From contig OZ244561.1 in NCBI GenBank assembly GCA_965217585.1, positions 800,001 to 864,000 of the forward strand: 64,000 nt of DNA. Reading direction: 5' to 3'. Made by a program: the position numbers and the translations under genes. Positions 2,673 to 60,536 of the stretch are shown here, one piece after another. The notes beneath the pieces were generated by a model. The model was not told the origin of the DNA. It saw only the letters and a program-made list of their open reading frames with translations, and ran no database searches. Origin of the DNA: Candidatus Latescibacterota bacterium (GTDB lineage: Bacteria; Latescibacterota; UBA2968; UBA8231). Position 1 is the stretch's first letter; every line of letters begins with the position of its first letter.

Positions 2673-2693
2673 GTCAGATTCAGATTCGTGCGT

Positions 2694-4793: not shown

Positions 4794-4849
4794 AATGCAC
4801 CTCCAAAGTCATAGGGACAGTTTATATCCCTCACCTCTAGCTCTATCGT

Positions 4850-6982: not shown

Positions 6983-7028
6983 AATGCACCTCCCGAGTTT
7001 GTGATCGTGCGGTTTAGCCTTGCGTTGC

Positions 7029-8387
7029 TCACTCCACCGCCACCAATTGCTGCGCCAAAGAGCCTTCCCGCGTCAAGGCATACACCAAGATGTTGACGCC
7101 GAGGTCATAGGCCGGGAACTCGTCCGCGACGGCGACAAAACGACCGAGAATGCTGCGGGCTCGATCCCACTCGCGTTGCCGCTCGGCCTCGCCCCCCCAC
7201 ATATCTGGGTAGCGCTTTTGCGAATAGAGCCCCACTAGACGGCCATCGACCTCAATGCCCTCCAGGTAATTGGGCGACGGTTCGGCGCGGCCCGCAGTGG
7301 CAGTGTTCCAATACCAGTCGCTGAGGTCCCAGAAGCCCCGCGGCAGGGTGTCGATGTCGTAGAAGCAATGATAGAGCGGGTGCTCCGGCAGCAGCCGCAC
7401 AAAAGCCCAATCTTTGCCCTCGGCGTAGCCTATCTGCGCAAAGGCCTGGCGGATGAAATCGCGCAACGCCGGCAGATCGTGCACAAGGCCCTCGCCGATT
7501 TCTAGGGGCACAGAGACGATATCCGTATAGAGGAACCCCCCGGACGTCAGGTAGCGCCCCAGATTTTTCGCTTCGGCCTGAGTGAACGCCACCTCGTAGT
7601 TGATCGTCAGCAGCAGAAACGGCACTTGCAGCAGGCGCGGATCGTCCAAGTCAATGCCGTCGAGCACTTGGGTGCGCACGCCCGTGCGCTGGCTCATTTT
7701 GTCGGCCAGTCCCCGCAGGGTGCGCCGCTCGGCGACGCTCCGCCGGACAAAACCGCTGCGCGGCATCACTGCGGATTCGGCGCGCTCGAGGGCTTCGCTG
7801 TGGACACCCGATAGGTAGAGGAAGCCCTTGAGCGCGCGCCGGTCGCGTGGATCAACGACCACTAACGCCCGATGGCGACCCGTGTCGAGGGCATCCACGT
7901 CGAGCAATTCCATGTTCAGGTCGATCTCTTCTGCTTCCTGGTGGACCCCCTTTACGACGCCCGTGCGCATCTGAGGACCGATGTGTTGCGTCGGCGGGAG
8001 AGAAGAAGTAACCGTCGGCAAAACAGGGGGCGGAGCCTCGGTGACGGTTAGGGGTATGGACATGCCCTGACGCAGGTTGCGGCGGGTGGTTAAGGGGGCG
8101 GGGCGGACCGCGGCCACGGGGGTCGGTCGCACCGCTGGACGGCGCACCAGAGGTCTTTGTATCTGCGGGGACACCTGCCGACGAGCTAGGAGGCGGCGGT
8201 CGGGCGGTGGGCTTTTGTCAAATTTCAATAATATGGGTCGCCGGTGCTCTAGCGGCTGGTCGGCGCTCCAGAGGAAGAGCAAGGATAGATGGAGCACCGC
8301 AGAGAGCCCGATGAATCCGGCGATGCGGAGACGCTGGGGGGATCGGGGCATAGTCGGTTTAGACTTTTCTCGTCTAAGTGTAAACAT
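7029..8387 (-). CDS. DUF4159-like protein with N-terminal membrane anchor and Pro-rich linker
   Basis: IGLSAVLHLSLLFLW anchor, Pro/Arg-rich stalk, then EAKNLGRYLTSGGFLY, HPLYHCFYD, LEGIEVDGRL and GVNILVYALT motifs typical of DUF4159. Confidence 0.7.
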   Translation of the reverse strand: MFTLRREKSKPTMPRSPQRLRIAGFIGLSAVLHLSLLFLWSADQPLEHRRPILLKFDKSPPPDRRLLARRQVSPQIQRPLVRRPAVRPTPVAAVRPAPLTTRRNLRQGMSIPLTVTEAPPPVLPTVTSSLPPTQHIGPQMRTGVVKGVHQEAEEIDLNMELLDVDALDTGRHRALVVVDPRDRRALKGFLYLSGVHSEALERAESAVMPRSGFVRRSVAERRTLRGLADKMSQRTGVRTQVLDGIDLDDPRLLQVPFLLLTINYEVAFTQAEAKNLGRYLTSGGFLYTDIVSVPLEIGEGLVHDLPALRDFIRQAFAQIGYAEGKDWAFVRLLPEHPLYHCFYDIDTLPRGFWDLSDWYWNTATAGRAEPSPNYLEGIEVDGRLVGLYSQKRYPDMWGGEAERQREWDRARSILGRFVAVADEFPAYDLGVNILVYALTREGSLAQQLVAVE

Positions 8388-8422
8388 CTAATAGCGCTAG
8401 CGTTGTCGGTGGGTCGGGGCGT

Positions 8423-10579
8423 CTATTCGAGTTTGACCATCTTGCGAGTGCGCGTCTGGTCGCCCACATGTAACCGATACAAATAGACCCCAGCGGCGAC
8501 GGGTTGGCCCCACTCGTCCCGGCTATCCCAAGTCAGCCGGTGCGAACCGGCCGCCAGTGGACCAGCCCACAATTGGCGCACCGGCTGCCCCAACGTGTTG
8601 TAGATGGTTAAGTCCACATCGCCGGCTCCAGCGGATACCGTAAAGGGGATGGTCGTGGCCGGATTGAACGGGTTGGGGTAATTGGCACCAAGGACAAACG
8701 AAACCGGCTGATATCCCCCTATTGTTTCGGCGACTGCCGTGGCCTCGTCCGAAGTAGTGTTGAGCAGCACATGCACTCCTCCTCCCCCTACAGCAGCCGA
8801 CTCCGACACTACTATATCTACATCGTCATCGCCGTCTAGGTCGCCGGCAGCGATGCTCCCACCCGGTCCACTGAGAGGGTAGTAGCCCTCCTGTCGTGGT
8901 GGACCGTTCTCCTGACCTAGGTGAACCACGACGCCGGGATGGCGAAAATCGCTGTTGACGAAAACCAAATCGAGCCGACCGTCGCCGTTCAGGTCTCGGG
9001 ACAGGACCCTGCCGACGAGGACCACGTCCCGGTGTAACCGCATCTCCTCCAAGCCCCCATCGTCCGTGTTGATCCCTAGGGTCAGCCCTTTGAACATCGG
9101 ATTATTATCAAAAATTTTCACATCGGCCGTGGCCCAATCCACATCCCCGTCCCGGTCAAAATCTCCCACATAGCGGAGCAGGCTAGACTGTTCAAGATGG
9201 TCTATCCGAACGGGGAGAGACCTAATCTCCAGCTCTCCGACCGCATTGATATGCGTCGTCTTGTAGCCCGCCCCCGGATTGTCAAAAGGCGGCCGCCACA
9301 ACATACCTGGCACTTGGCTCACGCCTATCGCCTCTATGAACCGGGACGGCTGAAACCCCATCTGTGGGCTCAGCGACAGGCTATTCTGCGAGCCAAATTG
9401 GCCCGTGCCGTCGTTTAACAGCACCAGCACGTCGGCGTCGTCAAAGCCAAAGTTCATGAGGCCCCACATATCTTCGTAGCCATCTCCATTAATGTCCGCC
9501 AAGGCAAAAGACGAAAAGGTTTTGTAGTCGAAAAAGAAAGAGCCTAACTCTTCTTCAGTGAAACCCTCTGCGCCATAATTGACGAGCACCTCGATGGTCG
9601 CTCCGTTTGACACCACGATATCTAACAACCCGTCTCTATTGATATCGCCACCGTTTATGCGTGACCACCCCCTCGGTGTTGGCACCGTCTTCGCATACCC
9701 GTATGAAAATCCGCCTGAACCGTCTCCAAACGCGACGAGCCAGCCTTTTCTTACCTTTGCAACCCACTGGGCAACCAAGTCTATCGTCCCGTTCCCGTCC
9801 ACATCACCCAGCAACGGTGCAAATTGTGTACTCGGTCGCACCTCCAGAGGATGGAAAGTGGGCGAGTTAAACAAGCGGCCAAAGGAGGCGGACAACTCTA
9901 CTGCGGGCGGCGGCAGTTCGCCCTGGATCAGCTCTTCCACGCCCGTCAACTGTATCCAGTCGATCTCCACGGCCTCCGGCACCTCGTCTGCTCCCTGCAC
10001 CAAGGCATTCTCTGAGCCCGCTGTAGATAGCTGTAGATCGATCCGTATGTCGTCCAATGCCCCTTCCCATAAGATGTTGACCAACCTGCCGCTCAATTCG
10101 GAGGGCCTCGTCTCCAAATCTGCGTAGACGATCTCCTGCCAGTCCGTGGTATAGACATGCTGCTGGAAAACCCAGAAGAAGACATTCCGATCTACTTGTT
10201 CACGAGGTTCCCAACCAGGGGTCAAGCGATTGTGCGCATTGGTCCAGTGGAGTTGAGAACTACCAAAAATCGGGTCGGTATGCACCACGCGAAGACGCAC
10301 CCGGACCCGATCAAACAGACCGGAATCCTGCCCGATAAGAGGAGAGACTAACTGGAGCGACGGATTGCGCCCACGCTCAAAGGGGGGTATATCAATGCGC
10401 CAGACCCCATCGCTCACTTCTGAGCGCAAGTGGGCTAGAGTATTCGTAGGGACGTCCGAGTAGAAGCTTTCGCGGGCGGTCCAACCTTGGGTGTCTCCTG
10501 CTGCGTCGAATTCCCAGGTTATAGCGCCAGCGCGGGGAATTTGAGTGGCGAGGAACAGAACCGCGAATAGAACTTTCAT
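8423..10579 (-). CDS. Divergent secreted FG-GAP + FlgD-Ig protein, copy D
   Basis: AITWEF..QGWTARE, SPLIGQDSGLFDRV, EIDWIQLTG, FG-GAP motifs and an FlgD tail ending RKMVKLE. Confidence 0.9.
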   Translation of the reverse strand: MKVLFAVLFLATQIPRAGAITWEFDAAGDTQGWTARESFYSDVPTNTLAHLRSEVSDGVWRIDIPPFERGRNPSLQLVSPLIGQDSGLFDRVRVRLRVVHTDPIFGSSQLHWTNAHNRLTPGWEPREQVDRNVFFWVFQQHVYTTDWQEIVYADLETRPSELSGRLVNILWEGALDDIRIDLQLSTAGSENALVQGADEVPEAVEIDWIQLTGVEELIQGELPPPAVELSASFGRLFNSPTFHPLEVRPSTQFAPLLGDVDGNGTIDLVAQWVAKVRKGWLVAFGDGSGGFSYGYAKTVPTPRGWSRINGGDINRDGLLDIVVSNGATIEVLVNYGAEGFTEEELGSFFFDYKTFSSFALADINGDGYEDMWGLMNFGFDDADVLVLLNDGTGQFGSQNSLSLSPQMGFQPSRFIEAIGVSQVPGMLWRPPFDNPGAGYKTTHINAVGELEIRSLPVRIDHLEQSSLLRYVGDFDRDGDVDWATADVKIFDNNPMFKGLTLGINTDDGGLEEMRLHRDVVLVGRVLSRDLNGDGRLDLVFVNSDFRHPGVVVHLGQENGPPRQEGYYPLSGPGGSIAAGDLDGDDDVDIVVSESAAVGGGGVHVLLNTTSDEATAVAETIGGYQPVSFVLGANYPNPFNPATTIPFTVSAGAGDVDLTIYNTLGQPVRQLWAGPLAAGSHRLTWDSRDEWGQPVAAGVYLYRLHVGDQTRTRKMVKLE

Positions 10580-10672
10580 CCTTTTACTCCTAATTGCACT
10601 ACTTCGGTCACAGTATAGTCGAGCTTAGACCTCAAAGGTCAACAACAGACGAATCCTCTTAGGTCAGGGCGT

Positions 10673-12837
10673 CTATTCGAGTTTGACCATCTTGCGGGTA
10701 CGCGTCTGCTCGTCCACCTGCACCCGATACAAATAGACTCCGTCGGCGACGGATTGGCCCTGCGCGTCCCGGCCATCCCATGTCAACCGATGCGAGCCGG
10801 CCGCCAGCGGACCCGCCCACACGTGGCGCACCGGCTGCCCTAAGATGTTATAGATGGTTAAGTCCACATCCCCGGCTCCGGCAGGTACGGTAAGGGGGAT
10901 GGTTGTGGCGGGATTGAACGGATTAGGATAGTTAGCACCCAAAGCAAAGGCCATTGGCGTTGCCGCCGTCTCGGCCGCGATAGCGGTGGCTGGAACGCCT
11001 TGGTTGAGGAAGACGAAGGCCCCGCCGGGACCGCCTTCCACACTCCGCCCCAGCACCACCAGATCGGTCGCCCCATCGCCGTTTACATCGCCGGCGAGCA
11101 CTTGGCTACCAATGCCCGGCAGGGGGTAGCGCCCTTCGACGACGGGCACCCCATCGCGCTGGCCGACCAGCACCACCAGCGCCGACCCGGTGGCCACGTT
11201 GACATCGACCACGGCCAGGTCCAACAGGCCATCGCCGGTCAGGTCACTGGCAAGGACCCCACCCTCATCCGACACGAGCACCTGCGGCCCGAGCAGGGTG
11301 TGGCGTTCCACCCCGCCCGAGGCGTCCACACGCCACAGCGCCAAACCGTGGTGGGTGGTGGCACCAAAAAAGTCGAAGTATAGATTCCGCTCAGGGGTCC
11401 CGACGAACTCCACCGCCCCATCGCCATCCAGATCGGTGAGTAGGTACAGGTCACAGGGATTGACCGCGGCCTCAAAAAACAGCGGTGGCTGCTGGCTGGC
11501 CGCCCACGGCTGGGTCAGTTGCCAAGGCCCCGTGGGCTTGTAGCACACTCGGTTCCACAACAGGCGCACGGCCTCGCCCAACGGTTGCCCAGCGAGCAGA
11601 AAAGGATTGAGCTCCTCTTCGCTGTCGAGGGCGAACCAATCACTGTGGGCAAAACCGGCCGCGCCGTCATTGATCCACAGAGTCACGTTGGACCACGTGT
11701 CGCCTTCTATGACCAACAGGTCCACATCGCCGTCGCCATCGCCATCGGCTAGGCCAAGGGAAAAGACGTCGGATAGCTGGAGGATGGTTTCAAAGCCATT
11801 CTCGCCCCGGTTGAGCCACAATTCGAGGGTCAGACCTTCCCGAAAGGCCAAATCGAGCAGCCCATCCCCGTCGAAATCGCCCCCTGCAATCTCCATGATA
11901 GGCGCGAACTCGCCTTGGCTTGGGCGGAGAACCTCTCGGGTGGGGACCAAGCCGCCCAAACCGTCGCTGGTCGCTACCGTCCAGCCCGCTTGGGCCGTCA
12001 TCGTACTCGTCTCTGGGACACCGTGTAGTGTGTCCAGACCACTACCAGATCGGCATCGCCATCGCCGTCCACATCGCCCAAAGTACCTTGCGATAGTGGG
12101 CCACCGATACCTTGGCCCAGCACAGAAAAGCGCGGTTCGGCGAACAACGCGCCGGGCGACCCGGCCTCCACGGCGATCTCCCGGGGCGGCAATTCCCCCA
12201 GCACCAGCTCTTCGGCCCCCGTCAGTTGAATCCAGTCCACTTCGACAAAGGCTGGATGATCGGCCGGGCCCTGTGGGTCGATGTTTAAGTTTAGGTCTAG
12301 TTGCAAGTGGAAGAGGGTGTCCTGCCAAGTGATCGCGAGCCACTCTTCTTCTGGGTTCGCTTCCGCCGCGGCCTCCAAGGCGCGTATGTCTATGGTGACG
12401 TTTTCCCATTCCGTGGGATAGAGTTGATAACGGCCCGTATAAAACCCCGCCCGGCTGTCCATTCCGCGGTCGCCTGCTTCCTTCCTGAGGTGTCTGGACT
12501 CGACATTGGACCAGTCCATCAGGAGGTTCCCCTCGGTGGGGCGATCGTGTACGATGCGTAGCCGTAGGGTGACCCGGTCGAACAGGGCGGAGTCTTCCCC
12601 AATCAGCGGCGAGAGCAAGCGAATGGCTGGTCGTTGACCGACCGGCACCGGCGCAATGCGCCAGACGCCGTCTTCGACTTCGCTGTACACCGTGGTGGGA
12701 CTAACTCCACCGTTATTGCCTAAGTAGCTCTCGTGGGCCGTCCAGCCCCAAGTGGTGCCCTCGTCAAAATCCCACGTTAAGGCAAAGGCGCTAGGTGGAG
12801 CCGCCAATAACAAAATTGCTAAGAGAACACAGTGCAT
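10673..12837 (-). pseudogene. Frameshifted FG-GAP + FlgD-Ig paralog, copy C
   Basis: ORF 11998..12837 holds the N-terminal part up to GDVDGDGDADLVVVW. ORF 10673..12409 matches the paralogs from AGWTVATSDG onward. One frameshift near 12005-12035 (real or a sequencing error). Confidence 0.85.
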
Positions 12838-12897
12838 TGTTTGCCTCCAGAGTTTGTGGTCGTGCGGTTTAGCTGCCTCATCTCCAAGCCCTATCGC
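12838..12897 (-). repeat. Conserved 60-bp inter-unit spacer carrying the RBS (copy 3)
   Basis: tgtttgcctccagagtttgtggtcgtgcggtttagctgcctcatctccaagccctatcgc. Near-identical at 15102..15161 and 17247..17306; diverged or partial at 4794..4849, 6983..7019 and 19413..19445. Confidence 0.9.
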
Positions 12898-12931
12898 CTA
12901 TTCGAGTTTGACCATCTTGCGGGTGCGCGTC
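12898..12931 (-). pseudogene. Orphan 3' tail of an FG-GAP/FlgD gene (TRTRKMVKLE-stop)
   Basis: Reverse complement reads ACG CGC ACC CGC AAG ATG GTC AAA CTC GAA TAG, matching the gene ends at 8423 and 10673. No FlgD gene body lies upstream of it. Confidence 0.9.
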
Positions 12932-12968
12932 GTGCTTAATTAAACCGTATTGATCTTAAAACGGCTTC

Positions 12969-15101
12969 TCACAAGCTCGCCTCAATCGCCGCTACCGTCG
13001 CGTCTGTATTCCCCCTTAAGCCAGAATCCTCCACGATCAGCCCTTGTGAGTCCACCAAGTAATACGAAGGAATGCCCATCACTTGGTAGGACTTGGCCAC
13101 GTCCGCACCCCAGCCGTCCCCCCGCACGTGGACGCCTTTGATCTCGTGTTTGTCAATCGCCTCTCGCCAAGCAGCCTCATCCGCGTCCAGCGATATGTTG
13201 AGGAAGACGACCGGCCAGCCAGACGTCTTTTCCTTGACTTCTCGGAGATAGGGTAGGTCGCCGATACACGGGACACACCAACTCGCCCAGAAGTCGAGCA
13301 GAACCACCTGCCCCTTGAACTGGCTCAGCGATACCGGCTGACCGTCGAGGTCGTCGAGGGTAAAGTCGGGGGCGGCTTGTCCGGGTTGTAGCTTCATGGC
13401 GGTAGCCAGAGCCACTAGGACGGCCTCATTGTATTCCGGATACGGGTTGATCTGTTGGAACTCTTCCCACTTGCGCTGGGCCGCCGCAAAGCCTTCACTG
13501 CCACCGCGCTTGAGCGTATTGATCAGCTCTCCGGCTAAAAACCAGTAGAGCACTCTCCCCTCCAGTTTTTCTTTGGCCAAGTTGTATTTAGACCCAAACC
13601 AGTGTCCTTTTTCGGCATAGATCGAATCGAGTTGCGCTTGGGCGGCTTCCGATAGTCCCAAGCCCGATAGATCAATCTTCGCCGACAGCCCGAGCGGTTG
13701 GCGATGTTCGTACATCGAGTCGAGCTGGGCCTGAGCGGCTTCCGACAGCCCCAAGCCCGATAAATCGAGCTTTGCAGACAGCTTGAGTGGCTCTTTGGTT
13801 AGGGAATTCCACGGTACTGAGAAAGGCTTATGGAACACCACCTCTCCGTCCGTCGTATCCGCCCTAGGCTTCTCTTCCTCACTTGGGTAGACGTTGAGAG
13901 CCCTAGCGGACTTTTCGTACAGAGAGTCGAGTTGCGCGTGGGCACTTTCCGAAACACCAAACGCCGATAAATCGTACAGTTCGGACAGCTTGAGCCAGCG
14001 GCCATCCCTTTCGTACAGAGAATCGAGTTGCACTTGGGCACTCGCTGAAACACCAACCACGGACAAATTGACCATTTTCGACAGCACGGGCTGTCGGCCG
14101 TCCTTTTCGTACAGGGAGTCGAGTTGCGCTTGGATCTCCTCCGACAACTCCAAACCCGATAGATCGTACCGCTTGGATAGCTTGGGGGGGCTCCATTCGA
14201 ACTCGTTATGGTCTTCCTAGCCCAAGGTCCTCTCCACAAACTCGCGATAATGCCAGACGCCTATGGCCTTTTCGTCCACTAGGGGGAATTCCTGCAGGAA
14301 GTCGTAGTACTCTGGGGTGATGTCTCTGTTCTTGCGTTTGTTGGCAAAGCGGTAAGCCGTCGAGTAAGACATCATCTCATTGACCCACATATAGTTGACG
14401 TAGTTTGTCACATAGTCGATGCACCCTAAAGACAGCGCATATCGCTCGCGCCCTGCGGCCAAGAACTCGAACTGATCTCGCCGCTGCTGTTCCATGCGGC
14501 GCGAAAACTCTTCCAACTCCAGACCCTCGTAATCGAGGTGGAAGAATTGGAAGCGCGGAAACCACTCGGAAGTGAAGCGGCTGTTGTCTGCGTTGGAGCC
14601 GCTGAACGAATAGGAAGGAACGAAAAAGCCCTCCTCCACGGCCACGTGCAGACTGTCGCCGGGTTCGACGAAGAGAGTCAGGAATTTGCGCTCGAAAAGG
14701 AACGATCCTAACCACTGTACCCATTTCCATCTCGGCTGCCCGCCTTCGAAATACCCCCAGACGAGGGTCCCTCGGACGACAGGCAGCTCAAGGGCGAAGC
14801 GATCCAAGCTGTCGAGCGCGACGCGCTGCTCGGGGCTTTCCAGCGCCGACAGCGATTCGTACCTAAATGTGATTTCCCGCGAGCGAGGATCCCGGACTTC
14901 GCCGGTGATGATCACAACCGATGGCTGGCTCTGAGTACTATCTGCGTCCAAACGAGGACTCGCTACCATGCTTTCGCTGCTCACCATGGTAGCCGTTGCG
15001 GAACTCTCCTGTGCCGCCCAGCCCTCGGCGAAATCCCACGTTAAGTCAGAGACTCCGTGTGGAGCCGCCACCAACAACATTGCAAAGAGAACGCGGCGCA
15101 T
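12969..15101 (-). pseudogene. TlpA/ResA-like redoxin with array-derived leader and internal helical repeats, split by one in-frame TAG
   Basis: ORFs 14217..15101 and 12969..14153 share a frame, with TAG at 14217-14219 and an open frame on both sides. C-terminal APDFTL..VLLDFWASWCVPC..GIPSYYLVD is a thioredoxin fold with CxxC. Confidence 0.8.
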
Positions 15102-15161
15102 AATACACCTCCAGAGTTTGTGGTCGTGTGGTTTAGATCCCTCATCTCCAAGCCCTATCGT
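15102..15161 (-). repeat. Conserved 60-bp inter-unit spacer (copy 2)
   Basis: aatacacctccagagtttgtggtcgtgtggtttagatccctcatctccaagccctatcgt. Confidence 0.9.
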
Positions 15162-17246
15162 CTATTCGATTTTGACCATCTTGCGGGTACGCGTCTGATC
15201 ATCCACCTGCAACCGATACACATAGACCCCAGTGGCGACGGGTTGACCCTGCGCATCCCGGCCATCCCAAGTCAGCCGATGCTCGCCAGCGGGCAGCGGC
15301 CCCGTCCACACCTGGCGCATCGGCTGCCCCAGGACATTGTAGATGGTTAAGTCCACGTTCCTCGCTCCGGCGGGTACGACCAAGGGGATGGTCGTGGTGG
15401 GATTGAACGGATTGGGATAGTTGGCACCTAAAGCAAAGGCTGTTGGCGTGGCCGCCTCGGCCGCTATTGCTGTGGCCGGAGTGCCTTGGTTGGTCAAGAC
15501 GAAGACGCCGCCTTGGCCGCTGGCCGGATTCGTTCCCAGCACGACCAGATCGATGTCGCCATCGCCGGTGACATCGCCGGTGAGGACCTGATTGCCCTCG
15601 CCGGGCAGGGGGTAGTAGCCTTCGAAGACGGGTGCGCCGTCGCGCTGGCCGAGCCACACCAATAGAGCCGGACGACCGATGCTCAAGTTGCCAGCGACCA
15701 TAGCCACATCCAGCACGCCATCGCCGTTGAGGTCGCTGGCCGTGGCTGCGTGCGCCGGGAGCACCTTCCAATCGAGCAAGGAATGGCGTGCCACCACGCC
15801 GGAGGCGTCCAGACGCCACAGGGACAAGCCGTAGTAGTGGTTGCCGAAGAAGAAAAAACCTTTGGGGGAGTCGAGTAGGTCCACCATCCCATTGCCGTCG
15901 AGATCAGCCATCAGGTGCAGGGCGGAGGGATTGACCGCGGCCTCGAAAGAGCGCGGTGGTTCTGGGATGGCGGCCCACGGTCGGGTCAGTTGCCAAGGCC
16001 CCTGGGCCTGGTACCACAACAGGCTCGCAGCTTCGCCGAGGGGTTGCCCGGCGGGTAGGTAGGCAGGGAAATGCTCTCCGCTGTCGAGGATGAATTCCTC
16101 GCCGCGGACAAAGTCGTAGCCGTCGTTGATCCATAGAACCACTTTTCGGGACAACGCGTCGTACTCCCCGACCAACAGGTCCGTATCGCCGTCGCCGTCG
16201 CCATCGGCCAAGCCAACGAGCCAGACATCGAACAGTTGCAGGGAGGGTTCAAAGCCGTCGCCCCAGTTGTACCACACTTCGACGATTCCGTTCTCGTCAA
16301 CGACCAGATCTAGGAGTCCATCGTCGTCGAAGTCGTTTCCCCAGAGGTCCATGATTGGAAAGGAGTCAAAGGATGCGGTGGTTGAGAGAGTGACCTCTTG
16401 GGTGGGTTCAAAGCCGCCTAGCCCGTCGTTGGACGCCACCGTCCAGCCTAGTTGTCTTTCGCGGTCCACGAGGCGGTTCCAAGCCACCACGAGATCCGCA
16501 TCGCCATCGCCGTCTACGTCGCCCACCGCGCCTTGCGATGCTCGCCAATAGATTGGGGTGCCGATGCCCTTTCCAAGCGGAAAAAAGTCGGGGGCGGCGA
16601 ACAGCGTGCCGGGCGGCTCCAACTCCACACCGATATCCCTAGGCACCAATTCCCCCTGCGCCAACTCTTCGGCTCCTGTGAGCTGGATCCAGTCTATTTC
16701 TAGAAACTTTGGGTGGTTGTCCACGTCCTGCGAGTCCCGATATAACAGCATGTCTATAAAAAAATTAAAAAGAGTATCCTGCCAGGTGATCGCCCATTCT
16801 GTGTCTGCTTCTGCCAAGGCGCGTAGATCTACGGTGATGTCTTCCCATTCGATGGGATACGATTGCTCACGTCCCGTACTAAACACTCCTTTTGTGTCAG
16901 AGTCAGGGTGGCTCACGGCATTGGACCAAATCATCGAGAATTGTTCCTCAGTGGGGCTATGGTGTATGAGGCGCAGCCGTAGGGTGAGGCGGTCGAACAG
17001 GGCCGAGTCTTGCCCGATCAACGGTGAGCGCAATTGAACAGTGGGTCTGCGACCAGGCACGGGCGCAATGCGCCAGACGCCATCGACGACTTCGCTCTGT
17101 AGTGGTTCGAGACTGCCTCTTGTATTGCTATGAAAACCTTCCCGGGCGGTCCAGCCCCAAGTGGAGCCGTCGGCGAAATCCCACGTTAAGGCAAAGGCCC
17201 CGTGTGGAGCCGCCACCAGCAACATTGCAAAGAGAACGCGGCGCAT
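15162..17246 (-). CDS. Secreted FG-GAP + FlgD-Ig protein, copy B
   Basis: Same architecture. Long blocks are near-identical to copy A. Confidence 0.92.
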   Translation of the reverse strand: MRRVLFAMLLVAAPHGAFALTWDFADGSTWGWTAREGFHSNTRGSLEPLQSEVVDGVWRIAPVPGRRPTVQLRSPLIGQDSALFDRLTLRLRLIHHSPTEEQFSMIWSNAVSHPDSDTKGVFSTGREQSYPIEWEDITVDLRALAEADTEWAITWQDTLFNFFIDMLLYRDSQDVDNHPKFLEIDWIQLTGAEELAQGELVPRDIGVELEPPGTLFAAPDFFPLGKGIGTPIYWRASQGAVGDVDGDGDADLVVAWNRLVDRERQLGWTVASNDGLGGFEPTQEVTLSTTASFDSFPIMDLWGNDFDDDGLLDLVVDENGIVEVWYNWGDGFEPSLQLFDVWLVGLADGDGDGDTDLLVGEYDALSRKVVLWINDGYDFVRGEEFILDSGEHFPAYLPAGQPLGEAASLLWYQAQGPWQLTRPWAAIPEPPRSFEAAVNPSALHLMADLDGNGMVDLLDSPKGFFFFGNHYYGLSLWRLDASGVVARHSLLDWKVLPAHAATASDLNGDGVLDVAMVAGNLSIGRPALLVWLGQRDGAPVFEGYYPLPGEGNQVLTGDVTGDGDIDLVVLGTNPASGQGGVFVLTNQGTPATAIAAEAATPTAFALGANYPNPFNPTTTIPLVVPAGARNVDLTIYNVLGQPMRQVWTGPLPAGEHRLTWDGRDAQGQPVATGVYVYRLQVDDQTRTRKMVKIE

Positions 17247-17306
17247 TGTTTACCTCCAGAGTTTGTAGTCGTGCGGTTTAGCTCCCCCACCTCCAAGCCC
17301 TATCGT
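17247..17306 (-). repeat. Conserved 60-bp inter-unit spacer (copy 1)
   Basis: tgtttacctccagagtttgtagtcgtgcggtttagctcccccacctccaagccctatcgt. Confidence 0.9.
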
Positions 17307-19412
17307 CTATTCGATTTTGACCATCTTGCGGGTGCGCGTCTGGTCGCCCACCTGCAACCGATACACATAGACCCCAGCGGCAACAGGTTGACCCTGCGCA
17401 TCCCGGCCATCCCAAGTCAGCCGATGCTCGCCAGCCGGCAGCGGCCCCGTCCACACTCGGCGCATCGGCTGCCCCAGGACATTGTAGATGGTTAAGTCCA
17501 CGTTTTTGGCTCCGGCGGGCACGGCCAAGGGGATGGTCGTGGCGGGATTGAACGGATTGGGATAGTTGGCTCCGAGGGCAAAGGTCGTGGGCGTGGCCGT
17601 CTCGACCGTCACGGCTGTGGCCGGGGTGCCTTGGTTGATCAAGACGAAGACGCCACCGAGGCCGCTGGCCGGATTCGTTCCCAGCACGACCAGATCGGTG
17701 TTGCCATCGCCGTTGACATCGCCGGTGAGCACCTGATTGCCCTCGCCTGACAGGGGGTAGTAGCCTTCGAGGACGGGTGCGCCGTTGCGCTGGCCGAGCC
17801 ACACCAATAGAGCCGGACGACCGATGCTCAAGTTGCCAGCGACCATAGCCACATCGAGCACGCCATCACCGTTGAGGTCGCTGGCGGTGGCTTCGTGCGC
17901 TATGAACGCCTTCCAGTCGAGCAAGGAATGGCGTGCCAACACGCCCGAGGCGTCCAGACGCCACAGAGCCAAGCCGTAGTAGTCGGTTTCACCGAACCTA
18001 TCTATGCTCTCAGGGGAGCCGAGTAGGTCCACCATCCCATTGCCGTCGAGATCAGCCAGTAGGTGCAGGGCATAGGGATTGACCCCGGCTTCGAAAGAGC
18101 GCGGTGGTTCTTGGCTGGCGGCCCACGGCCGGGTCAGTTGCCAAAAGTCTTGAGGCTCAAAGCAGCCCCCATTCCACAACAGGCTGGCGGCTTCGCCCAA
18201 GGGTTGGCCGTCGGGCAGATAGGGGCACAGCTTCTCTCTGTCGGGGGAGAATGTATCACTGCTGACAAAATCGTAGCCGTCGTTGCTCCACAAGGTCGCG
18301 TAATACGATTCGCCGTCATACCCCCCGACTAACAGGTCCACATCGCCGTCGCCGTCGCCATCGACCAAGCCAATGGGCCAGACGTCGAACAGTTGCAGAG
18401 CGGGATCAAAGCCGTCGCCCCAGTTGTACCACACTTCGACGATTCCTCTTTCGGCAACGACCAGATCTAGGAGTCCATCGCCGTCGAAGTCGCTTCCCCA
18501 GAGGTCCATGATTGGAAAGGAGTCAAAGGATGCGGTGGTTGAGAGAGTGACCTCTTGGGTGGGTTCAAAGCCGCCTAGCCCGTCGTTGGATGCCACCGTC
18601 CAGCCCAGTTGGCTTTCGCGGTCCACGAGGCGGTCCCAGAGCACCACGAGATCCGCATCGCCATCGCCGTCTACGTCGCCCACCGCACCTTGCGATGCTC
18701 GCCGATAGCTTGGGGTGCCGATGCCCTTTCCGAGCGGAAAAAAGTCGGGGGCGGCGAACAGCGTGCCGGGCGGCTCCAACTCCACACCGATATCCCTAGG
18801 CGACAATTCCCCCTGCGCCAACTCTTCGGCCCCGGTCAGCTGGATCCAGTCTATTTCTAAAAACTTTGGATGGTTATCCACGTCCTGCGAGTCCCGATAT
18901 AACACCATCTCTATATCAAAATTGAAGAGAGTATCCTGCCAGGTGATCTCCCATTCTGTGTCTGCTTCTGCCAAGGCGCGTAGATCTATGGTGATTTCTT
19001 CCCATTCGAGGGGATAGGATTGCCGACGTCCCGTACCAAATACTCTTTTTGTGCCAGAGACAGGGCGGCGTCTTTTCTCGGCATTGGACCAGTTCATCAC
19101 GAATAGTTCCTCGGTGGGGCTATGGTGTATGAGGCGTAGCCGTAGGGTGAGGCGGTCGAACAGGGCCGAGTCTTCCCCGATCAACGGTGAGCGCAATCGA
19201 ACGGTGGGCCTTCGACCGGGCACGGGTGCAATGCGCCAGACGCCATCGACGACTTCGCTCTGTAGTGGGTCTCTATTAATAAAAGTTACATTGCTATGAC
19301 CACTTTCCCGGGCGGTCCAGCCCCAGGTAGAGCCATCGTCGAAATCCCACGTTAGAGCAAAAGCCCCGTGTGGAGCCGCCAAGAAGCCAATAGTGAATAG
19401 CAAGTGGCGCAT
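17307..19412 (-). CDS. Secreted FG-GAP + FlgD-Ig protein, copy A
   Basis: Signal peptide, ALTWDF, FG-GAP motifs and FlgD tail ending RKMVKIE. GGAGG RBS. Confidence 0.92.
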   Translation of the reverse strand: MRHLLFTIGFLAAPHGAFALTWDFDDGSTWGWTARESGHSNVTFINRDPLQSEVVDGVWRIAPVPGRRPTVRLRSPLIGEDSALFDRLTLRLRLIHHSPTEELFVMNWSNAEKRRRPVSGTKRVFGTGRRQSYPLEWEEITIDLRALAEADTEWEITWQDTLFNFDIEMVLYRDSQDVDNHPKFLEIDWIQLTGAEELAQGELSPRDIGVELEPPGTLFAAPDFFPLGKGIGTPSYRRASQGAVGDVDGDGDADLVVLWDRLVDRESQLGWTVASNDGLGGFEPTQEVTLSTTASFDSFPIMDLWGSDFDGDGLLDLVVAERGIVEVWYNWGDGFDPALQLFDVWPIGLVDGDGDGDVDLLVGGYDGESYYATLWSNDGYDFVSSDTFSPDREKLCPYLPDGQPLGEAASLLWNGGCFEPQDFWQLTRPWAASQEPPRSFEAGVNPYALHLLADLDGNGMVDLLGSPESIDRFGETDYYGLALWRLDASGVLARHSLLDWKAFIAHEATASDLNGDGVLDVAMVAGNLSIGRPALLVWLGQRNGAPVLEGYYPLSGEGNQVLTGDVNGDGNTDLVVLGTNPASGLGGVFVLINQGTPATAVTVETATPTTFALGANYPNPFNPATTIPLAVPAGAKNVDLTIYNVLGQPMRRVWTGPLPAGEHRLTWDGRDAQGQPVAAGVYVYRLQVGDQTRTRKMVKIE

Positions 19413-19521
19413 GGTACCTCCAGAGTCGAAGAGTGTGCGTTTAGCCGGTCCCCAACGCGGCTCTATGTGGCCGCTGGAGGACGTGACGAATTAATTAGTG
19501 GACCGGATAAGACAGGGTTGG

Positions 19522-19551
19522 CGTAGGGGCGGTCCTCAAGCCGCCCCTACG
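19522..19551. repeat. GTAG-type REP-like hairpin
   Basis: cgtaggggcgg-tcctcaag-ccgcccctacg, a perfect 11-bp stem just downstream of the TolB-like gene. Confidence 0.7.
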
Positions 19552-19563
19552 GACGAGACGCGA

Positions 19564-20436
19564 TTAACGGGTACCCTCTGAACGCAGCGCTTTGATCCGT
19601 CCCCACGACTGGGCTTCGACACTAGTAGCAGCAGGAAGCACCGGTCGCCAAGCAGGAGAGTGTCCACCTAAGCCGTTGGTCAGGTCGACCCAGTTGTCCC
19701 CGTCTGTATCAGCGGCCCAAATCTCAAACTGACCCATGAAATCGAGAAAACCAGAGAAGGCTATTCTCATGCCATCGGGCGACCAAGTAGGAAACGTTCG
19801 CCAATTTTCGTAGGGTTCGGTGTATATCAGTTTATTCTGGAGTGATTCAGGTAGGAGATAACCTGGGTGCATGTGATCACTGGCACTGGTGCGGATGTAG
19901 AAATTGACATGCTTATGGCCCCCTCCATCCCACAACGAGACGGTTGCTAGTAGGGTTCCGTCTGGAGAAACACCAGGGAGGAAGCGGCTATATACCTCTC
20001 TCCAGTCCACAGGCGACGCGCCACTGCCGTCCAGCGCCGTAACAAACGCATCAGGGCCGTCCCACTCGTCTGGAATCGGCAAAGTCATGACGGCGATATA
20101 GTAAATGTTACTCCCGTCTTCAGACCAAAAAAGCCTCGCTTTATCGACTGCATCGTCTGTCACCTGTTGCGGATTACTGCCGTCGGCATTCATCAACCAG
20201 ATTTCACCACTGGCAATATAGGCGATCTGCGTGCCATCTGGAGACCAAGCCGGGCTAGCGCACTCCCGGCCTTGGGTTAGGTTTATGGGATCGCTCCCAT
20301 CCGCATTCATAATCCACACGTCACCGTACCCCTCGCGGTCGGATATAAATGCGATTTTACCGCCGACTTGCCCCCAGCTAGCCACGGCCAGCCCCAGCGT
20401 TGCCAAGCAGACGATCAGTATCGACCGATAGTTCAT
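19564..20436 (-). CDS. Secreted TolB-like/PD40 beta-propeller protein with C-terminal SWGRIK tail
   Basis: Signal peptide MNYRSILIVCLATLGLAVASWG; KIAFISDR, PAWSPDG and PTWSPDG motifs; ends ATSVEAQSWGRIKA. Start placed at the AAAGGAG-preceded ATG 20436. Confidence 0.85.
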   Translation of the reverse strand: MNYRSILIVCLATLGLAVASWGQVGGKIAFISDREGYGDVWIMNADGSDPINLTQGRECASPAWSPDGTQIAYIASGEIWLMNADGSNPQQVTDDAVDKARLFWSEDGSNIYYIAVMTLPIPDEWDGPDAFVTALDGSGASPVDWREVYSRFLPGVSPDGTLLATVSLWDGGGHKHVNFYIRTSASDHMHPGYLLPESLQNKLIYTEPYENWRTFPTWSPDGMRIAFSGFLDFMGQFEIWAADTDGDNWVDLTNGLGGHSPAWRPVLPAATSVEAQSWGRIKALRSEGTR

Positions 20437-20510
20437 AACGCATCTCCTTTCAGATGGATGGATTGAGTAAGAAGAGTTCATACACGCATCTCCTTTCAGA
20501 TGGATGGATG
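20431..20510 (-). repeat. Tandem duplication of RBS + start codon, ATGs 45 bp apart
   Basis: atccatccatctgaaaggagatgcg-t(g)t-ATGAAC occurs twice on the minus strand. The ATGs at 20481 and 20436 are in frame. Confidence 0.85.
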
Positions 20511-20599
20511 GAATATTTGCCCCAAGAGTTGGGGGGTGGCTGCGAGATGATCTGTTGGCGTCGCCTGCACGCTTGGCAACAAGCATCAATTCTATATAT

Positions 20600-20615
20600 A
20601 GCATACTTCGTGCCA
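20600..20615 (-). promoter_or_regulatory. sigma54 (-24/-12) promoter
   Basis: Minus strand TGGCACGAAGTATGCT: TGGCAC box with exact GG-N10-GC spacing, ~240 bp downstream of a sigma54 activator gene and oriented into the array. Confidence 0.85.
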
Positions 20616-20750
20616 CACAGCAGATCCCGCACAAAAAAATCCTTTAGGATGGACCCTAAAGGATTGGAAAACATAGTGGTTATATAGCGTGAAACTTCTT
20701 TTTATTAGGCGTGATGTCCGTCGTCGTTACAAGGTGATCTAAAGTAATTC

Positions 20751-20808
20751 CGTATTAAATACGACTTTCCCGTATTAAATACGACTTATTTCGTATTAAA
20801 TACGACTT
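20751..20808. promoter_or_regulatory. Three phased palindromic repeats, putative enhancer (UAS) sites
   Basis: cgtattaaatacgactt at 20751, 20771 and 20792. The core CGTATT-A-AATACG is an inverted repeat. Spacing 20/21 bp; ~135-195 bp upstream of the -24 box. Confidence 0.75.
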
Positions 20809-20852
20809 AACCCCAACAGCGCCGTGGCTCCGGCCGGCCGCGGCCCTCCCCT

Positions 20853-23800
20853 TTAAGGCCCTTTCTTCGGTCGTCGCAACCCGTACACGCGCATGCGGGA
20901 ACGCAGTCGCTCTGGGTTCATGCCCAACAAGTGCGCCGCCCCCCGCTCTCCATAGATCTTCCCCTCGGCGGCTTGGAGCGCCTCCACGATTTGCTGTTTC
21001 TCGGCCTTGAACTCGGCTTCAACCGGAGCGGCGGCCGGCGGCTCAAGAGGCCCCTCCGTGGCCTCGTCTTCAGCAGCCAGCGGCACATCCTCCACCTGAA
21101 TGACCTCCCCTTGGCATAGCACCACTGCCCGCCGGATCAGATGCTCCAACTCGCGCACATTCCCCGGCCACGCGTACGCCTGCAAATGCTTCACCACTCC
21201 GTCGCCCAAAGCTGGCACGGGTCGCTGCAGACTTTGGGCATACCGGCGCGCAAAATCCGCCGCCAAGACCGGGATATCCTCTCGACGCTCCCGCAGCGGC
21301 GGCAGCTTCACCGGCCACACGCTCAAGCGGTAGAACAGATCTTCCCGGAACGTCCCCGCCCGGATCACCTGTTTCAGATCCTTGTTGGTCGCCGCAATCA
21401 CCCGCACATCCACCGGGATGGACTTCTCGCCGCCGACGCGCGTCAGGTAGCGATTCTCCAGAATGCGGAGCAGTGCCTGTTGGACTTCTAACGACAGATC
21501 GCCGATTTCATCGAGGAACAAGGTGCCGTAGTTAGCTCGTTCAAAACAGCCGATATGCCGCTTCACTGCGCCAGTAAAAGATCCTCGCTCGTGGCCAAAC
21601 AGCTCGCTCTCGATCAGCCCAGCGGGCAGGGAGCCGCAATTGAGCGCGACAAAGGGGTGCCCTCGGCGCTGGCTCAGGTTGTGGATCCTACGAGCGAGTA
21701 CGCCCTTGCCCACCCCAGTCTCGCCTAGCACCAGCATCGTCATATCGGTATCGGCCATCTGCTCGATCCCCTCTAAGAGCTCGGTCATGGCTGGGCTCTG
21801 ACTGAGAAAGTCCTGACCCGCATCCCTCAGCATGTGTTCTAAGCGCTGAAGGCGTACGCTCTTCTCGTCGGCAAACACCTGTACATCGAGAGTGGCGACT
21901 TCCGACATGAGGCCATCCCGATCTAAGGCCCGCACTTCAAAGCGGAATTGGCCAGCCGGTACGCGGTGGTACGACACTCTGTTGGAAGGAGTGAACGCAC
22001 TCCACTCTTCTGCCGGGTCGTAGCCGACGAGCCGATGGCTGTAGCGCATCTGCTCGGCCCCGCTCCGGAAGCTGAGGCCCTGGAAGTGAAACTGAATCTC
22101 GGGGGTGCTATCCGGGCAGGACACGGCTTGGGGCATCTCCAAGAGACGCCCCGCCACGACTTGGCGGATCACGATACCCGGAGGCGTATCGCCAGGCTGG
22201 TACGCAATCAGCCCCGCCCTCGTCCCAAACCACAACCGGCCCCGGCTATCGGGCAGGATGGCCTCGACGATATTCTCCAAGGTAGACTTGCCCAAACGGA
22301 TGCTCTGAAACCCCCGACCATCGTACTTCAGCACGCCCCCACCGCTCGTCCCAATCCACAGACATCCCTGCTGGGGATCAGCTACCAGAGCCAAGATGCT
22401 ATTGACGGAAAGATCGCCTTGGTCCGCCGTAAACCGACGCACCTGCTGAGCGCGGTAGTCAAAGGAGAAAAGGCCGTTGGCCGTCCCGACCCAAAGCGCA
22501 TCTTCATGTTCACACAATGCACTCACATAAGCGACGGTTTCTATCCCGGCCATGTCAGACGCGTGGAAATGGCCGTCTTTGTAATAGTACAGAGCCGGCG
22601 TTGTCCCATAGCTACCGATCCACAAGGTGCCTTCGCTATCCTGCAACGCGACTCGGCAATAATCAGGTCCCTGCTGCTCGGCTATAAAGCGGTCGTCTTC
22701 TATCCTGCCCAAGCATCCCCCGGAAGTGCCGACCCTTATGCGCCCTTCTCGGTCTGGGTACAGCATGATTTCTTCGGCGTTGTGGTCTTTTGCCACCTCG
22801 ATCACTTGGGCCTCTTCCCCCACCCCTTTAATTACTTTGTCCTCGGGGCTCCCGCGCCAGATTTGCCCCTCGCGGTCTATGGCCAACGCCGTGACCTTGT
22901 GCCCGGTCTCCACCGGGCGAATCCGGTCGTCTTCAAGACAGGCTAAGCCCCCCATCGTGCCGATCCAGATCCGGCCTTGGTGATCTTCGCTTAGCTGGTG
23001 GACCCCGCTATCGGGCAGACCGTCGGCTTCGGTGTATAGCTGGACGCTGACCGGATCGCAAAAAACCAGCCCGCCGCCCCAAAGCCCCACCCAGATATTT
23101 CCTTCGCGGTCCGCGTAGGTCAGCCGCGCATCCGAAAAGTGAATATCCGGCAAGCCAGCGGAAAAGGGATGCCACTCCTCTCCGTCGTACACTAGCACGC
23201 CCCGGCGAGTCATCCACAGCCAGCCTCTAGCGTCCAAACGCACATGGCGCGTGCCGTGATTTACGGCCTCCGTCCCTTCGATAGCTGCGTCCGCATTGAT
23301 CAGGTCGAGTTGTTGGCTATCTGGATCATAGCGGCCTATAACGGCTTCGGTGCCAATGTAGCGAAAGGCGATCCACAGCAGGCCGGAGGCGTCTTGGGCG
23401 AATTTCCACGGCCACTGCATCGCGCCGTTCCCCGCACTCATGCGCCGACCGTCTAGGCTAATGACCCCCCACTTCAGCGTCGCCAGCCACGTCGTACCCG
23501 TTGCGTCGGTGGCCATGTCGAACATCCGCCCTATGGGCTGACCCGCAATTTCTGTCACGCGCTCTACGCACCGCCCCTCGGCGAACCAGCCTATTCCTGC
23601 GCTGGTCAGAACCCGTATCGAGCCATCGGCTTGGGATTGCAGGCCCAATATGTCGTTGGAGGGCAGCCCGTGCTCGGTGGTGTACACCTGAAAGCCACGC
23701 TCGTCGTAAGCCGCCAGCCCACCGCCGAGCGTACCGAAGAGCAGTCGCCCGTCTTGGTCCTCGGCAATGGTCATTACCGTGAGAGTGGGTAGTCCATCCG

Positions 23801-24008
23801 ACAGGCCAAAGGTATCGAAATGCGCTCCGTCGAACCGGCTTACGCCGCCGTCGGCCGTGGCGATCCACAGCAGGCCGCGCTGATCTTGGTAGATGTCTTC
23901 CACCTGCATCCCGGCCAGCCCGTCGAAGACGGTGTACTGGTGCCCTAGGATGCGATCAAAGGGCTTTTTCTGTGTTGGGGGGGTTGCGGATTCCCTCGCG
24001 TCGGTCAT
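20853..24008 (-). CDS. sigma54-dependent enhancer-binding protein with N-terminal Reg_prop beta-propellers and Y_Y_Y domain
   Basis: Repeated DGLP / D..G.LWIGT..GL blades; YSHRL..Y..VPAGQFRFEVRA (Y_Y_Y); AAA+ motifs GETGVGK, ESELFGHERGSFTGA, LFLDEIG, FREDLFYRL and WPGNVREL; C-terminal Fis-type HTH. Confidence 0.93.
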   Translation of the reverse strand: MTDARESATPPTQKKPFDRILGHQYTVFDGLAGMQVEDIYQDQRGLLWIATADGGVSRFDGAHFDTFGLSDGLPTLTVMTIAEDQDGRLLFGTLGGGLAAYDERGFQVYTTEHGLPSNDILGLQSQADGSIRVLTSAGIGWFAEGRCVERVTEIAGQPIGRMFDMATDATGTTWLATLKWGVISLDGRRMSAGNGAMQWPWKFAQDASGLLWIAFRYIGTEAVIGRYDPDSQQLDLINADAAIEGTEAVNHGTRHVRLDARGWLWMTRRGVLVYDGEEWHPFSAGLPDIHFSDARLTYADREGNIWVGLWGGGLVFCDPVSVQLYTEADGLPDSGVHQLSEDHQGRIWIGTMGGLACLEDDRIRPVETGHKVTALAIDREGQIWRGSPEDKVIKGVGEEAQVIEVAKDHNAEEIMLYPDREGRIRVGTSGGCLGRIEDDRFIAEQQGPDYCRVALQDSEGTLWIGSYGTTPALYYYKDGHFHASDMAGIETVAYVSALCEHEDALWVGTANGLFSFDYRAQQVRRFTADQGDLSVNSILALVADPQQGCLWIGTSGGGVLKYDGRGFQSIRLGKSTLENIVEAILPDSRGRLWFGTRAGLIAYQPGDTPPGIVIRQVVAGRLLEMPQAVSCPDSTPEIQFHFQGLSFRSGAEQMRYSHRLVGYDPAEEWSAFTPSNRVSYHRVPAGQFRFEVRALDRDGLMSEVATLDVQVFADEKSVRLQRLEHMLRDAGQDFLSQSPAMTELLEGIEQMADTDMTMLVLGETGVGKGVLARRIHNLSQRRGHPFVALNCGSLPAGLIESELFGHERGSFTGAVKRHIGCFERANYGTLFLDEIGDLSLEVQQALLRILENRYLTRVGGEKSIPVDVRVIAATNKDLKQVIRAGTFREDLFYRLSVWPVKLPPLRERREDIPVLAADFARRYAQSLQRPVPALGDGVVKHLQAYAWPGNVRELEHLIRRAVVLCQGEVIQVEDVPLAAEDEATEGPLEPPAAAPVEAEFKAEKQQIVEALQAAEGKIYGERGAAHLLGMNPERLRSRMRVYGLRRPKKGP

Positions 24009-28154: not shown

Positions 28155-28228
28155 TTCTCCACAGTTGCGTGAGGGTGTGCCTTAGCGCATCCAGCCCACC
28201 TGTGCAAAGACGGGATTTTGCGTGCTGT

Positions 28229-29059: not shown

Positions 29060-29183
29060 GATGAATTCCCTTTTAAAATTGCTGTTTGGAATGGTACTCT
29101 GAGCCTCCACCGCCTGCAACTGGAGTTTAAGATAAGGCGACTACCCAAGCCAAGAAGTACATTTGGGGCGGATATTTATTACA

Positions 29184-57616: not shown

Positions 57617-57795
57617 GAGTTCAGCTCCTCCTTGCCAAATCGAAAAATAGCCCGCGTCGGGAAATGGGCCAGCGATCGAGAGCGAATATATAAGTCTCAT
57701 TGTCCGTTGCCAAAACAAGGACACCTGGGAAGCTATTAGTGATCATCGACGCTCATACCCAATACTGTCCAACCTCTAGCCGGTCCACCTCACCC

Positions 57796-60503: not shown

Positions 60504-60536
60504 ATTGGGGCCCAGTTTTTCGTAAAGTTTGGCAAT

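Follow-up and report, generated by a model that had tools for sequence, protein, structure and literature searches.

A TlpA-like redoxin behind the leader of an FG-GAP gene array in a Latescibacterota genome: one interrupted copy of a probably old chimeric subfamily

How does a thioredoxin-type protein come to occupy a slot in a tandem array of unrelated secreted proteins, with the leader of the array at its start and a piece of the array's tail behind its stop codon? The question is raised by a stretch of 64,000 nucleotides (nt) from a Candidatus Latescibacterota bacterium (hereafter the window; positions 800001-864000 of a 7.32-Mb single-contig genome, G000), in which FG-GAP repeat genes of about 700 amino acids (aa) follow one another and the slot at 12838-15161 holds a redoxin. 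A preliminary description of the slot had read it as a recent cassette swap, the unit borders acting as a capture frame for foreign cargo. We find it better explained as one copy of an old chimeric gene subfamily, born of a signal-peptide swap, with this copy later broken by an in-frame TAG. We put the probability of this explanation as a whole, an old chimera of single origin plus the breakage of this copy, at roughly 0.8.

Anatomy of the redoxin slot

The slot lies between the units that we number U2 and U4. All slot and array-unit features are on the minus strand of the window, and those of the slot are as follows.

15102-15161, minus strand: 60-nt array-type spacer with a GGAGG ribosome-binding site (RBS), upstream of the slot, from DNA alignment
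12969-15101, minus strand: redoxin slot gene, between U2 and U4
14973-15101, minus strand: unit-derived codons 1-43, comprising the array signal peptide and a decaying LTWDF..GWAAQE..SSE remnant, from alignment to six units
14973 to 14972, minus strand: 5' junction, from alignment of chimeric and native DNA
14937-14972, minus strand: codons 44-55, SMVASPRLDADS, the redoxin's native signal peptide (second half, decayed), from DNA alignment to native paralogs
14220-14936, minus strand: mature redoxin N-terminal domain, beta-sandwich and helical bundle in the predicted model of the intact paralog
14217-14219, minus strand: in-frame TAG, codon 295, Trp (TGG) in relatives
12972-14216, minus strand: remainder of the redoxin, with five LS..QLDSxY repeats, a helical linker and a TlpA/ResA-like thioredoxin domain
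13617-14126, minus strand: cores of the LS..QLDSxY repeats
about 13023-13388, minus strand: thioredoxin domain, with WCVPC at 13266-13280
12969-12971, minus strand: redoxin stop codon TGA
12934-12968, minus strand: AT-rich filler of 35 nt that separates the redoxin stop from the orphan tail, from alignments
12898-12933, minus strand: orphan unit tail T-TRTRKMVKLE plus TAG, 11 codons, from DNA comparison with unit tails
12838-12897, minus strand: next standard spacer with RBS, upstream of U4, from DNA alignment

At its 5' border the slot has the sequence of an array unit. The spacer at 15102-15161 is identical at 51 of 60 positions to the spacer upstream of U2 and to that at 12838-12897, the first 16 residues of the slot protein, MRRVLFAMLLVAAPHG, are identical to those of U2, and codons 1-26 match U2 at 72 of 78 nt. 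In a DNA alignment with six units the homology reaches codon 43 (14973), with a 12-nt deletion, and the N-terminal frame scores 44.7 bits against a hidden Markov model (HMM) of unit N-termini; the leader and LTWDF..GW motif that characterize array units both stand at the N-terminus of the slot. From codon 44 onward the protein is unrelated to the units, with no FG-GAP match in Pfam and no match to the HMM of unit interiors. The orphan tail behind the stop codon lies in another frame than the redoxin and is not translated; it matches the tails of U2 and U4 at 31/33 and 32/33 nt. Of the filler in between, only about the first 8 nt resemble the 3' flanks of native redoxins, and the other ~27 nt have no match there. 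The slot lacks a translated C-terminal sorting domain for the type IX secretion system (T9SS), only the 11 out-of-frame tail codons being left behind the stop.

What the preliminary description had reported of this anatomy is borne out: a standard spacer and RBS, a start identical to that of an array copy, a degenerate array N-terminus of about 43 codons, a switch to an unrelated protein with a WCVPC TlpA-type domain, and an orphan TRTRKMVKLE-stop followed by the next spacer. It had also remarked that the slot length matches the array period. The match is real (2264 nt for the slot versus 2145-2258 nt for the units), but it is explained by the size of native redoxins (656-702 aa) and not by a frame.

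The slot body is confirmed as a predicted TlpA/ResA-like thioredoxin-fold domain by Pfam, by its CxxC motif and by the modeled fold. The stretch 12969-14216 scores 73.3 bits against Redoxin (PF08534; cut-off, 26.6) and 66.7 bits against AhpC-TSA (PF00578; cut-off, 26), and the W, C, P and C of the active site WCVPC are invariant in 25 of 25 aligned family members. Structural models (AlphaFold2) are those of an intact paralog about 80% identical to the window copy. In the model, whose mean predicted local distance difference test score is 73.4, residues 1-58 (leader and remnant) are disordered; behind them come a beta-sandwich, a bundle of helices and helical repeats, and a thioredoxin domain forms the C-terminus. 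Foldseek aligns this paralog model with ResA and Bacteroides TlpA-like structures (E, 1.9e-9; TMt, 0.85; root-mean-square deviation, 2.1-2.4; ~140 residues), and the matches of the full model are dominated by the thioredoxin domain. The intact paralog does not reach the NCBIfam equivalogs for TlpA (NF047696, 57 versus 230) or ResA (NF002854, 78.3 versus 170). Homologs are named [quoted passage not shown] in one database source.

The mature N-terminal domain matches no Pfam family, and a fold search with it returned only generic transthyretin-like, immunoglobulin-like and helical matches at Z 8-9 (maximum, 8.9). Among Atlas clusters, the nearest to residues 58-320 are “TlpA family” (0.95) and DUF4369 (0.88, with 170 shared features), which we regard as a lead only. 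The family thus shares with TlpA-, ResA- and DsbE-type oxidoreductases the C-terminal thioredoxin fold, the WCxPC motif, and Redoxin and AhpC-TSA scores above cut-off. It differs from them in its length of ~700 aa, with an N-terminal extension of roughly 520 aa that has no Pfam family, and in falling far below the NCBIfam equivalog cut-offs; in addition, the window copy is interrupted by a TAG. Bacteroidota TlpA-like (lipo)proteins with a DUF4369-type N-domain are alike in that an accessory N-domain precedes a TlpA-like domain, again as a lead only, as Pfam DUF4369 has no match here and the fold matches are to a generic beta-sandwich. The donor units are of the T9SS type A cargo kind (FG-GAP/VCBS proteins with a FlgD_ig or Por_Secre_tail C-terminal domain [CTD]), and the genome encodes a PorU homolog. 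The slot protein differs from such cargo in that it keeps only the unit signal peptide and has neither FG-GAP repeats nor a translated CTD.

Direction, age and later interruption of the fusion

A tblastn search with the slot recovers many redoxin paralogs in the same genome, in a family 656-702 aa long. Six full-length paralogs carry a native leader, MxNxY..LIAxLIASSACLA or MNPY..LVALLSTASVGLAQ, which directly adjoins the conserved ..ITGE.. start of the mature protein, and the native N-terminus follows the pattern MxNTYxxxLIAxLIASSACLAS-QSQPS. The DNA homology between chimeric and native genes extends into the second half of this native signal peptide, where LIASSACLAS has turned into SMVASPRLDADS and hydrophobic residues of the old signal peptide are replaced by P, R and D, a change to be expected after the array leader had assumed their role. 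Because the homology to the native signal peptide starts there, the 5' junction is placed between 14973 and 14972, and because the chimera retains a decayed half of the native signal peptide, the polarity runs from native gene to chimera. The unit remnant in front of it (LTWDF..GWAAQE..) is deleted to different extents in different lineages and is therefore dispensable.

The fusion is not confined to the window. A second array at 3.64-3.66 Mb, 2.8 Mb away, contains two more leader-redoxin chimeras, one intact (genome 3644296-3646470, 724 aa) and one from which 63 nt of the remnant are gone (genome 3650923-3653001). All three copies share the same two junctions, the filler and the orphan tail, and the slot is about 80% identical in protein sequence to its chimeric paralog. 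Among 31 genomes searched, chimeric copies occur in at least six other species with the same genus label (G003, G006, G010 with two copies, G011, G012 and G013), a count taken from the best matches, next to 253 further ones, and hence a minimum. Ten of the 28 mature sequences in a maximum-likelihood tree are chimeric, and these lie on one side of a single branch (support, 100/100), sister to a native “5929-like” clade, and form three subclades with several species in each. Since the same junctions recur in several species and the chimeras form one clade, the fusion appears to be old and single, where the preliminary description had supposed a recent capture. The intact paralog has, in addition, a 30-nt tandem duplication in its N-domain (L001 about 6020-6050, genome about 3646030) that is not found in the other two copies.

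The orphan tail lies behind 6 of the 10 chimeric copies, in 4 species; in the other 4 it is deleted, or the gene stands outside an array beside scraps of spacer and leader. The filler is complete in the three copies of this genome and in G013_L019, and partly deleted in G003_L011, G010_L018 and G011_L010. In a large protein database, the array leader is carried by 74 of 120 cluster representatives listed (of 563 matches), with 33 native and 13 unclear or truncated. A check that the preliminary description had proposed, the search for homologs with a different native signal peptide, is thus answered by these 33 representatives and the six full-length paralogs, and its view that the redoxin acquired the RBS, spacer and signal peptide of the array holds.

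Its view of the redoxin as foreign cargo does not. Native redoxins are found beside ABC-transporter-like genes in some cases, and at 6.815-6.834 Mb two of them are flanked by diverged units of the FG-GAP family; in G001 one stands directly upstream of a unit and overlaps its start. Because native redoxins sit among diverged units (6.82 Mb) and beside a unit in G001, the redoxin is not foreign to the arrays.

The TAG at 14217-14219, overlooked in the preliminary description, splits the slot gene into open reading frames (ORFs) 14217-15101 (294 aa) and 12969-14153 (394 aa). The hydrophobic array leader that precedes the redoxin is a predicted export signal, and in the window copy this TAG interrupts the frame between it and the catalytic domain. 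Codon 295 is TGG in both chimeric paralogs of the genome, and Trp also stands there in the intact database proteins nearest to the window copy, P0043 and P0040 (710 aa, 94% identity). A 151-nt contig from run X1 is identical to the window, TAG included, and two contigs from run X5 have TGG at the site plus other differences, and hence come from a relative or paralog. By these comparisons, the window copy is probably a recent pseudogene.

Two redoxin paralogs with native signals also have one in-frame stop each, TAA at genome 5936378 and TAG at 3716332 (L003 and L004), in both cases in place of a Gln of their relatives. In total, 3 of 9 full-length paralogs in the genome are broken by single nonsense codons and none by a frameshift. 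We rejected stop-codon recoding, as the three interrupted paralogs use both TAG and TAA; the pattern argues for ordinary decay in a redundant family.

Proposed origin and alternative explanations

In an ancestor of several species of the genus, FG-GAP/T9SS-CTD units and ~700-aa TlpA-like redoxins would already have been neighbors. Illegitimate recombination would then have broken a redoxin gene in the middle of its own signal-peptide sequence and put a unit's spacer, RBS and initial 43 codons in front of it. At the 3' end the redoxin would have become linked to a unit's final 11 codons and spacer. Two roughly 2-kb deletions in a unit-redoxin-unit layout could have produced both joints, as could one replacement. 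The array leader would now provide the translation start and Sec export, leaving the unit remnant and the half native signal peptide dispensable and decaying. Without the T9SS sorting domain, the product would be expected to act as a CxxC thiol-disulfide oxidoreductase that remains periplasmic or membrane-bound. As both unit borders were kept, the chimera could be copied like any unit and may have spread by unequal crossing-over, and the window copy would later have suffered a TGG-to-TAG nonsense mutation at codon 295.

Several points weigh against this account or parts of it. The data fit two deletions and one replacement alike and do not distinguish between them. The redoxin tree is rooted at its midpoint only, with no full-length outgroup found outside the genus (G019-G030 gave thioredoxin-domain matches only), and for that reason the polarity rests on the decayed signal-peptide remnant. 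The cleavage-site residues AFA of the units have become VSD in most chimeras; under the usual -3/-1 rule for signal-peptidase cleavage, this change may block processing and leave a predicted anchor. Run X1 is possibly the assembly's own source sample and hence no independent confirmation of the TAG. Finally, the 2.1 kb of the slot gene have no lesion besides the TAG, and its differences from P0040 show an even distribution (22 ahead of the TAG and 20 behind it), which would make the break either very recent or tolerated.

How widely the unit borders are used bears on the alternatives. When all six-frame segments of the genome were scanned with the HMM of unit N-termini, 25 frames matched: 22 units (14 of them by construction), one fragment of 89 aa and two of the chimeric redoxins, the third escaping detection. 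A database search with residues 1-48 of U2 returned 56 proteins, 37 FG-GAP proteins and 19 chimeric redoxins. Neither the six-frame scan nor these 56 matches contain a third type of body behind the array leader. The tail has 21 matches in the genome, which belong to ends of units, to the three redoxin slots and, in one case, to a decayed CTD. The last of these, a tail-like match at genome 778744, was considered as an orphan tail beside new cargo and rejected, being the end of that CTD. The search for tails beside other non-FG-GAP cargo, as had been proposed, thus yields none besides the redoxin slots. A Pfam scan of 30 window ORFs (smaller ones were outside it) turned up no integrase, transposase or other recombinase, and the RNA folds of four border regions do not go beyond those of shuffled sequences (z, 0.10 for the spacer at 15102-15161, and 1.60, -0.14 and 0.56). 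The tails of the two arrays differ at a synonymous site: in the window array 7/7 tails, among them the orphan, have CGCAAGATGG (AAG variant), and in the second array at 3.64 Mb 8/8 tails, both orphans among them, have CGCAAAATGG (AAA), as do the orphan tails of other species. Such array specificity at one site hints that gene conversion acts locally on the tail-spacer region.

A recent cassette swap, with the borders as a general capture frame for foreign cargo and the nearby DUF4159 gene as a second capture, would account for a chimera that retains both borders, and these borders are real and better conserved than the interiors: mean pairwise identity of the units is 0.78-0.84 over the last 270 nt and 0.73 over the first 90 nt, versus 0.42-0.79 in the interior. 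Against this stand the same junctions in three paralogs and at least six other species within one clade, a leader that heads only one cargo type besides the units, tail matches that reveal no new cargo in the genome, and a redoxin that is a habitual neighbor of the units. The DUF4159 gene has its own N-terminus of transmembrane type, no array leader and no orphan tail, and four DUF4159 paralogs (52-79% identity) adjoin other arrays of the FG-GAP family; we therefore rejected it as a captured gene and regard it as a regular array neighbor. The general capture-frame reading is already largely refuted, and we consider it most improbable; no new capture mechanism is revealed. Integron cassettes are similar in that a repeated border element surrounds differing coding interiors expressed from array signals, but they differ from the present case, where no recombinase occurs among the 30 scanned ORFs, the RNA folds give no attC-like spacer structure, the cargo is of a single type and the fusion lies within coding sequence. 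A milder version holds that the tail-spacer-leader stretch, kept uniform by gene conversion, serves as homology arms in an ongoing cassette-like shuffling that moves or amplifies one old chimeric redoxin, only the slot position being recent. It would fit the three copies in two arrays 2.8 Mb apart and the two copies in G010, the array-specific tail variant common to orphans and unit tails, and the identity of the slot leader with that of its neighbor U2. That variant is a single site, however, the divergence between the slot and its paralogs (about 80% identity in protein sequence) is like that of the neighboring units (81-84% in nucleotides), and plain block duplication explains the copies equally well; ongoing shuffling is, in our judgment, unlikely. 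Still, a homology-driven, recombinase-free spread of the chimera is possible but unproven. It is quite unlikely that the uniform tail-spacer-leader stretch amounts to portable homology arms plus expression and export signals, a recombinase-free cassette system in an uncultured lineage of the Fibrobacteres-Chlorobi-Bacteroidetes type; if it did, a gene landing between such arms, here a TlpA-like redoxin, could be amplified, moved between arrays and coregulated with T9SS cargo.

Two further alternatives concern the assembly and the TAG. The region is rich in repeats, and public short-read contigs there are fragmented at about 150 nt, which would suit an assembly artefact with junctions made from misjoined repeats. 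Yet assemblies made independently for at least six other species contain the same junctions, as do two other loci of this genome, and a 128-nt contig from run X7 reads through from the spacer across tail and filler to the stop (12849-12976). The confirmation of both junctions in reads, which the preliminary description had called for, is thereby obtained at the 3' side; among the read-contig pieces listed, none spans the 5' junction by 31 nt or more in each direction. For the junctions this reading is already refuted, and it can practically be dismissed. The TAG, for its part, might not inactivate the gene but be read through, or leave two products, a secreted 294-aa N-domain and a TTG-started 394-aa piece with the repeats and the thioredoxin domain. 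Both halves are still open and otherwise unspoiled, and two other redoxin paralogs of the genome also have exactly one in-frame stop; but these stops are of different kinds, so that a recoded codon is no explanation, the second piece would have no signal peptide in a family that is extracytoplasmic by its architecture, and those close relatives of the window copy that were looked at have an unbroken frame and Trp at this codon. We therefore hold a noninactivating TAG to be highly unlikely.

The old signal-peptide swap that we favor belongs to a known kind of event, the ordinary evolution of chimeric genes within a cluster of tandem paralogs, of which it is a well-preserved example. We found no description of the FG-GAP array or of the leader-redoxin chimera in the literature searched, supplements aside. 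The closest published concept found is the lpl cluster of Staphylococcus aureus, where recombination at a central conserved region shuffles paralogous halves (Tsuru and Kobayashi 2008, PMC2568036). There, too, tandem paralogs have a stretch from 3' end through intergenic region to 5' end as the evolutionary unit and gene parts are reshuffled by recombination (PMC2568036); here, in contrast, the borders are the conserved part and one unit interior is replaced by a nonhomologous gene. The locus thereby offers a clean, datable example of a secreted bacterial protein swapping its export signal through recombination in a tandem paralog cluster, with both molecular scars, half of the old signal peptide and the orphan 11-codon tail, still legible.

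Array architecture and genomic setting

The other members of the window array are the following.

17307-19412, minus strand: unit U1, in the tandem array of ~700-aa genes
15162-17246, minus strand: unit U2, in the tandem array
10673-12837, minus strand: unit U4, frameshifted
8423-10579, minus strand: unit U5, in the tandem array
7029-8387, minus strand: DUF4159 gene, between U5 and U6
4850-6982, minus strand: unit U6, in the tandem array
2694-4793, minus strand: unit U7, in the tandem array

The array units consist of FG-GAP repeats and a C-terminal FlgD_ig/T9SS type A sorting domain (Pfam and NCBIfam), with TIGR04183 at 39.7 bits versus a cut-off of 23, and the PorU homolog of the genome scores 627.5 bits versus a cut-off of 420. 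In databases the units go by names such as [quoted passage not shown] and [quoted passage not shown] Upstream of the array, at 20853-24008, lies a sigma-54 activator gene with a Reg_prop/Y_Y_Y sensor. A large uncharacterized TlpA-like family is thus habitually encoded among predicted T9SS cargo arrays downstream of sigma-54 activator genes, which hints at a functional link.

Not all units are intact. U4 is represented by two overlapping ORFs (11998-12837 and 10673-12409), with a frameshift near 12000-12040, right behind the first DVDGDGD motif, and is either a pseudogene or the site of an assembly indel. On the minus strand at 657-923, an 89-aa frame with an array-type leader precedes a unit-like ORF (genome 799336-800652) from which the sorting domain is missing; this locus is a degraded unit.

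Transcription of the slot is not evidenced by RNA run X21, whose 8 contigs are all 90-95% alike, mostly run on into unlike sequence and come from relatives. A promoter and terminator scan of 2400-20900 gave 3 promoter-like hits versus 6.3 expected and 12 terminator-like hits versus 14.9 expected, none of them of use.

Further clusters of the FG-GAP unit family occur at genome 6815000-6835000 (L002) and 6784000-6816000, and one of them mixes diverged units with native-signal redoxins and redoxin fragments. Other clusters follow the order sigma-54 activator, units, transglutaminase-like gene, DUF4159 gene, and the arrays look like repeated regulated modules. The DUF4159 genes at window 7029-8387 (minus strand) and, shortly ahead of the window, at genome 797982-799400 are 79% identical, each ends a run of units, and the second is also preceded by a transglutaminase-like gene (window 1368-2672), which suggests tandem duplication of two whole modules.

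Beyond the array, three paralogous DUF6785/DUF6784 genes lie on the plus strand at 24165-26159, 32474-34417 and 57700-59736. PhyH-type dioxygenase genes (27198-29119 and 59745-61334) are found near the first and the third of these, and a BNR-repeat gene (26163-27173) adjoins the first. Three ORFs of 927, 966 and 330 aa that match no Pfam family accompany a group of large plus-strand genes (41319-43655, 50683-52632 and 52676-55222) with CHU_C or FlgD_ig C-terminal domains. Together with the array, these large genes make the region of the window rich in predicted T9SS cargo.

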